Counted from the first letter of the stretch, positions 13,331-14,693 are shown. The stretch: DNA of 34,009 nt from Candidatus Thorarchaeota archaeon (GCA_016839605.1 JAEOTX010000149.1:1-34009), one strand, 5' to 3'. Made by a program: numbers and translations. Notes: generated by a model not told the origin, from the letters alone.

Positions 13331-13726
13331 TTATGTCGAGAGTAGATCGCCGACTTCTTTGGCGTATTTCCTCATCTGAGTTGTAGCCAAGCCCATGGAT
13401 GTCAAGTCTTTGGCGGCACCCATAAGTAGAAACTCGCCAGCCTGTGAAAGGACAGCAAAACCCTTCGCTCCTCTGACCGTCACCTCAAAGAGTTCTCCCA
13501 AATCAAGCCTCTCTGGAGATGCAGCCATCTCTCCAGTCATCAACAATGCTGCACTTACAGCAGCCATGAGGTCTGGATCTGCTTCAGAGTCCTCTGTGGC
13601 GAAGTACGCCAGCTTTACACCCTGTTTGCTGACAACCGCAATGGCGTCAAGGTCAGCATAGTTGGTCAATCCCATTAGGAGCTCTACGAGTTCCTTCTCC
13701 TTTTCTGGGTCGAGATGTTGCGACAT
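13331..13726 (-). CDS. Roadblock/LC7 (MglB/LAMTOR2-like) domain protein
   Basis: 131 aa with the roadblock pattern AIAVVSKQG...DPDLMAAVSAALL...GE...L.LGEL.EVTVRGAKG...AG...SMGL. Confidence 0.85.
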   Translation of the reverse strand: MSQHLDPEKEKELVELLMGLTNYADLDAIAVVSKQGVKLAYFATEDSEADPDLMAAVSAALLMTGEMAASPERLDLGELFEVTVRGAKGFAVLSQAGEFLLMGAAKDLTSMGLATTQMRKYAKEVGDLLST

Positions 13727-13754
13727 GATATCTTGCTCCCTATTGATTCAGTGG

Positions 13755-14693
13755 TTATTTTGCTACTAGCTTCTTCTTCTTTTTAGTGGTCTTAGCCTTT
13801 CCCTTCGCGGCTGGTACAGCAGGCGCTTCTGTTTCGGACCTGAAGAAACTGATAAGGTCTCCCAAGCGCTCTTTCATCTCTTGCTTGATTGGGCTCAGAA
13901 TGGCTTCAGGCGTGCCCTTTAGTAATTCAATGCCTAGGACCTTCCCATCCTTCACAATAACGCGAGGAATGAATCCCTCTGCCATAAATGTGCCCTCTGG
14001 CGGATCCCTGACTTTTTCGAACTTCCTCTCGACTTTCTCTTGTCCAAAGACGGCTATCTTATGCTCTGCAACTGTGAACAATTCATTATACACGATTAGC
14101 AGTTCTCTCTGGTAGCCTTCAGGTGGATCAGTTGTCTGCAACTCCTCAATCATAGCGCTTATCTCACTTGAGACTGGCACTGCAGGGGGAGCAGTAGCTG
14201 GAGCTGCCTTTGGGATTGCTGCAGGTTTGGGTGGGGCTTTGGCTGTAGCAGGTGGCTTCGGAGGCGGTGCCGCTGCTTTTGGAGCTGGTTTCGGCTTCGG
14301 AGGTGGTGCAGTTTCTACCTTTGCAGTTGGTGTTTCTGCGGCAGGTGCTTTTGGTTTTGGCTTTGGGGGGGCTGTAGTCGGAGCCTTCTCTCCTGGCTTA
14401 AGGACACGTGTTGCAGCTGTTGTGCCATCTAAGGCGGTGAAAAACGTTGGCGGCTCTTCGCCTTCGTCTACCGCGCGTACCTTGAAATGGAATCCGTACT
14501 CAGTTCGAAGATTGGTAGCAACTCTGGCACCAATGAATTTCCTTCTGATTCCTGCTTGAGTACCCTTCCAAAGATAGATTGACTTGGTCTCGTCGTCAAC
14601 AACGCAGACAACCATTTGAGAATCTAAGTCCGCTTTGGAAATCTCAACTTCGTTGAGGGTTCCATCCTCCATTACCTCATAACCTACGACCAT
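13755..14693 (-). CDS. Gelsolin-like domain protein with Pro/Ala/Lys-rich linker, uncharacterised C-terminal domain and polybasic tail
   Basis: The N-terminal ~90 aa match the gelsolin repeat pattern (LDS..V..V D...IYLWKG......K..A...A......VDEGEEP..F). A ~85 aa P/A/K linker follows, then a globular domain and a KKKKK tail. Confidence 0.75.
   Translation of the reverse strand: MVVGYEVMEDGTLNEVEISKADLDSQMVVCVVDDETKSIYLWKGTQAGIRRKFIGARVATNLRTEYGFHFKVRAVDEGEEPPTFFTALDGTTAATRVLKPGEKAPTTAPPKPKPKAPAAETPTAKVETAPPPKPKPAPKAAAPPPKPPATAKAPPKPAAIPKAAPATAPPAVPVSSEISAMIEELQTTDPPEGYQRELLIVYNELFTVAEHKIAVFGQEKVERKFEKVRDPPEGTFMAEGFIPRVIVKDGKVLGIELLKGTPEAILSPIKQEMKERLGDLISFFRSETEAPAVPAAKGKAKTTKKKKKLVAK

Follow-up and report, generated by a model that had tools for sequence, protein, structure and literature searches.

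A probable Thorarchaeial ortholog of the actin regulator 1DGelX: predicted fold and Asgard distribution of domain X, and a linked Roadblock/LC7 gene

We have analysed a gene at positions 13755..14693 on the minus strand of the window, that is, the whole stretch of 34,009 nucleotides of Candidatus Thorarchaeota DNA under study. Its product is very probably the Thorarchaeial ortholog of 1DGelX, a calcium-independent actin regulator, as judged from sequence comparison, a structural model and analogy with the assayed ortholog, from which the activities are carried over. As such the gene holds no surprise: its family has been described and its architecture is already known. [quoted passage not shown] To these we add the lineage-specific motifs of the linker and the tail. 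1DGelX is among the few Asgard actin regulators with a measured activity, and its C-terminal half has so far been a black box. The results on domain X, on the linker and tail and on the Roadblock gene bear on the positioning and regulation of the pre-eukaryotic actin cytoskeleton.

Gene structure and domain organisation

The gene is an ORF of 312 residues plus a stop codon. All relatives in the alignment have the N-terminus MVVGYEV in common, which supports the start codon. More than 300 protein clusters are related to the window protein at 65-91% identity, and the named relatives come mostly from Candidatus Thorarchaeota, including SMTZ1-83 and SMTZ1-45. 1DGelX is present in 85 of the 87 genomes of the class, as a single copy per Thorarchaeial genome. 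In the genome of the window, the gelsolin-domain HMM and the domain X HMM both match the same ORF, once.

A full-length AlphaFold2 (AF2) model, built on 49 homologs, shows folded and disordered segments in alternation. The gelsolin/cofilin-type domain, identified by phmmer, AF2 and Foldseek, covers residues 1-91 (14421..14693, minus strand; pLDDT 88-98). It is followed by a basic linker rich in Pro, Lys and Ala, residues 92-174 (14172..14420, minus strand; pLDDT 46-69), which is disordered and almost without secondary structure in the model. Domain X, residues 175-288 (13830..14171, minus strand; pLDDT 81-96), has a confident AF2 fold, and a disordered polybasic tail, residues 289-312 (13758..13829, minus strand; pLDDT <60), ends the protein.

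The original prediction, made from the DNA sequence, agrees with this organisation in most of its parts. The single gelsolin repeat that it had described lies at residues 1-91 by both sequence and model. Its globular domain of ~90 residues is indeed a folded domain, but one that spans ~114 residues (175-288) by AF2. It had further described an amphipathic helix between this domain and the tail; the segment KQEMKERLGDLISFF is present at residues 270-284, but it is part of the domain X helix 262-288 and not a separate module. The polybasic terminus was read correctly, and the C-terminus is KGKAKTTKKKKKLVAK. The likeness to 1DGelX-type proteins had been named correctly as well, whereas the existing biochemical characterisation of the family had been missed.

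The gelsolin head

Residues 1-88 match the Thorarchaeota ProGel structure 7c2f_B in phmmer searches (E 1.2e-12), and the gelsolin domain matches 7c2g_G (E 2.5e-8) and 7whf_G (E 1.2e-5); solved 2DGel structures of Thor, Heimdall and Loki are among the matches. When the AF2 model of residues 1-91 was searched with Foldseek, the top match was again 7c2f_B (TMt 0.90, rmsd 0.9 Å, 34% identity). This search gave 74 PDB matches at E<1e-3, and among the matches listed all are gelsolin, villin, adseverin, CapG or fragmin domains. The Pfam search of the window protein (P0001) gave no PF00626 row at E<=1; its only row was DUF7904 over residues 34-91, with 14.9 bits against a cut-off of 30. The PF00626 model is mainly built from eukaryotic repeats, and it is matched by 28 of the 78 relatives at E<=0.01. 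An N-domain without the gelsolin fold had been named beforehand as what would speak against the original prediction. The superposition of the AF2 model on 7c2f_B and the gelsolin-family matches show the opposite, and by sequence and model the N-domain of the window protein is a gelsolin fold, in which a central mixed beta-sheet has a long helix on one face and a short one on the other.

The head is thus of the same gelsolin/cofilin type as that of ProGel (7C2F) and 2DGel (7C2G/7C2H). ProGel lacks the linker, domain X and the tail and barely binds actin, while in 2DGel the gelsolin domain is duplicated and regulated by calcium, unlike the calcium-independent 1DGelX. On the eukaryotic side, villin with its headpiece, CapG and adseverin resemble 1DGelX in combining a gelsolin-fold severing or capping head with a linker and a separate C-terminal element. 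However, the eukaryotic gelsolin superfamily has 3-6 gelsolin repeats where the window protein has 1, its calcium control was not found for the SMTZ1-83 ortholog, and neither the villin headpiece nor any other solved fold is detectably related to domain X.

Most Thorarchaeial genomes carry one 1DGelX and one or two short ProGel-type gelsolins. In the genome of the window, a ProGel-type single-domain paralog is encoded at G000:C100:1397-1654 (minus strand; locus L002), and it is 33% identical to the 1DGelX head.

Orthology to the assayed 1DGelX and the proposed mechanism

The '1DGelX' architecture was defined by Akil et al. (2020, PNAS), who assayed the protein of SMTZ1-83 (PMC7444086). The SMTZ1-83 homolog P0020, which we infer to be the exact construct of Akil et al., has 304 residues and is 77-80% identical to the window protein. 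By region, the identity is 92% in the gelsolin domain, 90% in domain X, 54% in the linker and 38% in the tail. The orthology follows from the high identity of the gelsolin domain and domain X and from the single copy per Thorarchaeial genome. A comparison with the described 1DGelX had been proposed in the original prediction, and it returns the same architecture and an orthologous protein. The two proteins also share the Pro-rich linker and a tail ending in KKLVAK; the window copy differs in its four APP(P)KP units (the Thorarchaeial median is 1) and in a longer lysine run.

The SMTZ1-83 1DGelX binds rabbit actin with a Kd of 7.7 uM, as against 337 uM for ProGel; at low ratios (0.1 uM) it shortened the nucleation lag, and at 1:1 it blocked polymerisation (PMC7444086). 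By pyrene assay, viscometry and TIRF, it severed filaments rapidly with or without Ca2+, and short fragments were transiently bundled (PMC7444086). These actin activities were obtained without profilin and without membranes, and co-sedimentation with filaments was inconclusive (PMC7444086). In U2OS cells, GFP-1DGelX was enriched at nuclear-envelope/ER-like regions and its association with filaments was weak (PMC7444086). ProGel by itself showed very weak actin binding and no severing (PMC7444086). The activities of the ortholog were measured on rabbit actin, not on Thorarchaeial actin, and they would apply to the window protein by analogy. The genome of the window encodes an actin of its own, which is eukaryote-like at 440 bits (G000:C255:11587-12690).

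ProGel on its own is a poor actin binder and does not sever, so that the extra affinity or geometry would have to come from the C-terminal half. In the mechanism that we propose, the N-terminal gelsolin domain would be the actin-binding and severing head, docking on actin as ProGel does in 7C2F, and the disordered, basic and Pro-rich linker of ~80 residues would tether this head to domain X. Domain X would then supply a second contact, which may be the side of the filament, another copy of itself or a partner protein. The Thorarchaeia-specific linker motifs and the KKLVAK tail would probably bind acidic surfaces, either F-actin or anionic membranes, and perhaps profilin. 1DGelX is probably co-transcribed with the dedicated Roadblock/LC7 ortholog, and joint action of the two may be suggested.

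Predicted fold of domain X

An AF2 model of domain X from a 78-sequence alignment has a mean pLDDT of 89 (core 92-97) and shows the same elements as the full-length model. These are a helix (175-187), five strands (194-201, 204-215, 218-227, 241-248 and 251-260) and a last helix (262-288; pLDDT mostly 81-96), with a 13-residue loop containing DPPEG between strands 218-227 and 241-248. Domain X is therefore predicted by the model to be a compact module in which a helix, a five-strand meander and a long helix follow each other. In the alignment the domain is near-invariant within Thorarchaeia, and the residues conserved across Asgard lineages cluster in three places: P-x-G-Y-x-R-E leads into strand 1, P-E-G-x-F leads into strand 4, and strand 4 itself holds an Arg. 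A comparison of the domain with itself for internal duplication found only the P-E-G motif to be shared. As for the earlier structural work, crystallisation of 1DGelX failed and domain X was modelled by I-TASSER as a coiled coil (PMC7444086). This coiled-coil model is not supported by the AF2 prediction, which gives the helix, five-strand sheet and helix described above.

The original prediction had proposed a Foldseek search for each domain. Such a search matched the gelsolin head, as given above, and found no PDB fold for the domain X model, whose best match had E 0.1 and a TM of ~0.2. The alpha-crystallin and lipocalin rows of this search are noise at that level. No Pfam model covers domain X in the whole protein or in the distant relatives; a single weak match to MPK1_gelsolin_C occurs in one relative (E 0.003). 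In the ESM Atlas, domain X retrieved only unnamed Asgard clusters (0.79). When VIA-align was run against 48,161 representative chains and the top 1000 of Foldseek, the best Z was 3.6, for 74 residues of the Cache domain of Tlp3 (rmsd 3.5 Å). Cache, GAF and PAS domains head the list with Z 2.2-3.6, and the other rows are single-helix matches. The likeness of the Cache, GAF and PAS rows to domain X goes no further than a helix lying on an antiparallel sheet of five strands. In the model the strands follow one another as a simple meander, uninterrupted by helices; Cache, GAF and PAS folds, like those of the Roadblock, longin and profilin type, differ from such a meander. A best Z as low as 3.6 is unusual, and the modelled monomer of domain X may not be a free-standing globule, which suggests that the domain may work as an oligomer or in a complex.

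This reasoning touches the hypothesis of Akil et al., by which domain X binds the side of F-actin or associates with itself, places the head on the filament and explains the bundling. We regard this as a real possibility, somewhat short of an even chance. It is consistent with the step from ProGel, which binds weakly and does not sever, to 1DGelX, which binds far better and severs, with the low fold-search Z as a hint at a non-globular monomer, and with a natural protein (P0179, below) that has domain X twice. However, co-sedimentation gave no clear answer on filament binding by the ortholog, which associated weakly with filaments in cells, and neither Foldseek nor VIA-align found any likeness of domain X to known actin-binding folds.

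Distribution of domain X

Residues 170-312 were used as the domain X query in a phmmer search of 1.8 billion representative proteins, and 96 representative clusters were found at E<1e-3. Most of these relatives have 280-320 residues with domain X on the C-terminal side of a gelsolin domain, including the protein of Odinarchaeum LCB_4. In a census of Asgard genomes of at least 80% completeness, domain X was found in 311 of 332 Asgard-phylum genomes, with 73 of the 78 genera and 27 of the 30 families represented, and roughly 760 domain X loci came to light. Thorarchaeia have a single copy, and in two large families the copy number is 2-5.

Several relatives have other architectures. P0170 of Helarchaeota continues after the gelsolin domain and domain X with a coiled coil of roughly 230 residues, and P0179, from the metagenomic/Helarchaeota set of relatives, has a gelsolin domain and two tandem X domains. 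In P0183, domain X lies at the N-terminus of an unrelated protein of 444 residues without a gelsolin domain. A further candidate, P0208, has 2928 residues and weakly resembles domain X in five stretches; it also contains a mannosidase Ig-like domain, and we set it aside as probably a chance match.

The proline-rich linker and the polybasic tail

The repeated APP(P)KP units named in the original prediction were located in the linker of the window protein in four copies: APPKP at residue 108, APPPKP at residues 129 and 142, and APPKP at residue 153. In 20,000 composition-preserving shuffles the mean count was 0.16, and 0 shuffles reached the observed 4. Tandem Repeats Finder reported no DNA-level tandem repeat in the linker, so the units are better described as recurring short motifs than as a recent duplication. 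Across 121 Thorarchaeial homologs, the linker has 67-92 residues, a Pro content of 26-36% and a net charge of +2 to +12. Its sequence is variable within Thorarchaeia (34-66% identity), and within it some positions are 88-100% conserved, namely K99, P100, G101, P105, P109, P110, P112 and K113, and further P131, P132, P134, P143-145 and P147. The conserved motifs that they form are KPG, PPKPK, PPxP and PPPKP(P). The tail has a net charge of +4 to +13 in the 121 homologs, and its last 8 residues carry a net charge of +2 or more in every one of them (121/121). It ends in KKLVAK in Thorarchaeia; KLVAK is invariant in alignment A1, and the most distant family has KLVPK (49 Thorarchaeial loci).

The picture is different beyond the class. 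In 54 relatives from other Asgard lineages, the linker has a median of 74 residues, a Pro content of 2-34%, a charge of -47 to +15 and a longest Pro run of 1-4, and most of these proteins end at or soon after domain X. Tails of at least 8 residues occur in 14 of them; 5 of these 14 have clearly basic ends, and some, as in Odinarchaeum, are acidic. A linker and tail without conservation had been named as evidence against the original prediction: they turned out to be conserved within Thorarchaeia, and not in the other Asgard lineages. Given this restriction to the class, the Pro-rich linker and the KKLVAK tail are, on comparative grounds, lineage-specific elements outside the ancestral 1DGelX design. 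Within Thorarchaeia, the linker motifs and the tail are conserved short motifs and are probably functional.

Two roles had been expected of these segments, membrane linking and profilin recruitment, and both are plausible for the window protein. In the first, the polybasic tail and the basic linker would bind anionic archaeal lipids, and severing and nucleation would take place at the membrane. We consider it possible, with the odds on the unfavourable side. The positive net charge and the KKLVAK end are kept across the Thorarchaeial homologs, and the nuclear-envelope/ER-like localisation of GFP-1DGelX in U2OS cells, with its weak filament association (PMC7444086), would fit; however, localisation in human cells is indirect. 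Tails are absent or acidic in many non-Thorarchaeial relatives, for example in Odinarchaeum, the window protein has no lipid anchor, and polycationic tails are equally good at binding and bundling F-actin.

In the second, PPKPK and PPPKP(P) would bind Thorarchaeial profilin and feed actin to the head in the manner of VASP or a formin FH1 region. We hold this to be quite unlikely. On the one hand, the linker, variable elsewhere, keeps three conserved proline clusters, the genome of the window encodes a profilin (G000:C153:4094-4429), and PPPKPP (143-148) resembles the PPPAPP of a VASP peptide. Ena/VASP proteins and formin FH1 regions also show a disordered Pro-rich segment beside an actin-binding module. 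On the other hand, profilin-ligand-type runs of ~5 or more consecutive prolines (XPPPPP) are absent from the window protein and from the 121 Thorarchaeial homologs. Only motifs of the PPPKPP and PPKPK type are present in the window linker; its longest Pro run is 3, that of the homologs is 3-4, and classical ligands are longer. Unlike Ena/VASP and formins, the window protein has no WH2, FH2 or EVH2. The PPPAPP peptide of VASP is bound by thorProfilin weakly, with a Kd of 200-500 uM, and the polyproline-binding thorProfilin is a minority type with an N-terminal extension (PMC8410842). The affinity is thus already weak for a better ligand, and the profilin frame of the genome of the window has only 130 residues. 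In addition, the linker prolines dwindle outside Thorarchaeia, and the ortholog needs no profilin to nucleate and sever.

The Roadblock/LC7 neighbour

Directly downstream of 1DGelX, a co-oriented gene of 131 residues (13331..13726, minus strand) belongs to the Roadblock/LC7 family, with a Pfam match to PF03259 (E 4.6e-8, above cut-off) and a match to the PDB Robl_LC7 structure 7f8m_A (E 9e-9). The intergenic spacer has 28 nt (13727..13754, minus strand), and no terminator-like site was found in it. The Roadblock gene is probably co-transcribed with 1DGelX.

The arrangement is conserved. A Roadblock gene lies directly downstream on the same strand, after a short gap, in 49 of 49 Thorarchaeial loci (17 genera and a second family). 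Outside the class we sampled 20 loci of 14 other Asgard families, picked from high-scoring domain X matches; 9 of them, including Odinarchaeum, have the same Roadblock subfamily directly downstream on the same strand. In one further locus Roadblock lies at a distance of ~0.9 kb, and in another it is convergent. The loci with a linked Roadblock gene are L004-L051, L082, L084, L085, L088, L092, L093, L095, L099 and L100. With an HMM built from the Thorarchaeial Roadblock genes, the neighbour scores 251 bits and four other paralogs of the same genome score at most 45 bits, and the linked genes of distant lineages are matched at E 1e-27 to 1e-37. Where the adjacency is lost, the likely ortholog is often found elsewhere in the genome. 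In families f23 and f24, domain X was not found and the Roadblock ortholog is also absent. In family f30, a Roadblock ortholog is present at G345:C13:8478-8849 (locus L101; 108 bits), and domain X was not found in this genome (G345, 87% complete) with the domain X query.

The conserved linkage suggests joint action of the Roadblock protein and 1DGelX; adjacency is no proof of interaction. Taken further, domain X could be the docking module for the co-transcribed Roadblock/LC7 protein, and severing could be coupled to a small-GTPase/Roadblock switch. We regard such docking as unlikely. The constant presence of one subfamily downstream of 1DGelX in all Thorarchaeial loci and in nearly half of the others, and the joint absence of domain X and the Roadblock ortholog from f23 and f24, point in its direction. 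However, the basis is adjacency only, the linkage is lost in several lineages and broken in about half of the sampled non-Thorarchaeial loci, and f30 has the Roadblock ortholog and yielded no domain X. None of the 96 representative clusters is a fusion of domain X with Roadblock. The comparison of domain X with the linked Roadblock family by hhalign gave a probability of 0.3%, and so there is no profile similarity by which domain X would pair like a Roadblock domain. As in MglB-type systems, where Roadblock/LC7 proteins are partners of small GTPases, the downstream gene codes for a genuine member of this family; unlike in these systems, no GTPase gene is linked at the 1DGelX loci. Beyond Roadblock, no conserved partner gene was found outside Thorarchaeia. 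A study of Asgard Roadblock proteins states that Roadblock genes as a rule do not share operons with GTPase genes, and it makes no mention of gelsolin (PMC10933270).

The most far-reaching combination of these results would make domain X a fold that has not yet been classified, that our searches met only in Asgard archaea and that acts with a co-transcribed and co-inherited Roadblock/LC7 partner. As a whole, we consider this combination quite unlikely. If true, gelsolin-type severing under Roadblock/small-GTPase control would be a prokaryotic forerunner of GTPase-regulated actin remodelling.

Other genes of the locus

Upstream of 1DGelX on the same strand lies an ABC transporter operon with genes for a solute-binding protein, a permease and an ATPase (window:15981-19840, minus strand). 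The position of the ABC ATPase and the permease is kept in 19-20 Thorarchaeial loci with long flanks, and this looks like class-level synteny, not like a functional link. Between the ABC ATPase and 1DGelX, the window has an ORF on the opposite strand (window:14905-15972, plus strand) for a multi-pass membrane protein of 355 residues, which matches no Pfam model and whose C-terminal tail is acidic and rich in D, E and T. At the distant Thorarchaeial locus L033, the ABC ATPase and 1DGelX are only ~86 nt apart. On the other side, a Peripla_BP_6 solute-binding protein is encoded at window:11676-13187 (plus strand). Towards its C-terminal end it has a poly-Thr tract, a transmembrane anchor and a run of seven prolines, which, unlike the linker of 1DGelX, is a true polyproline run.
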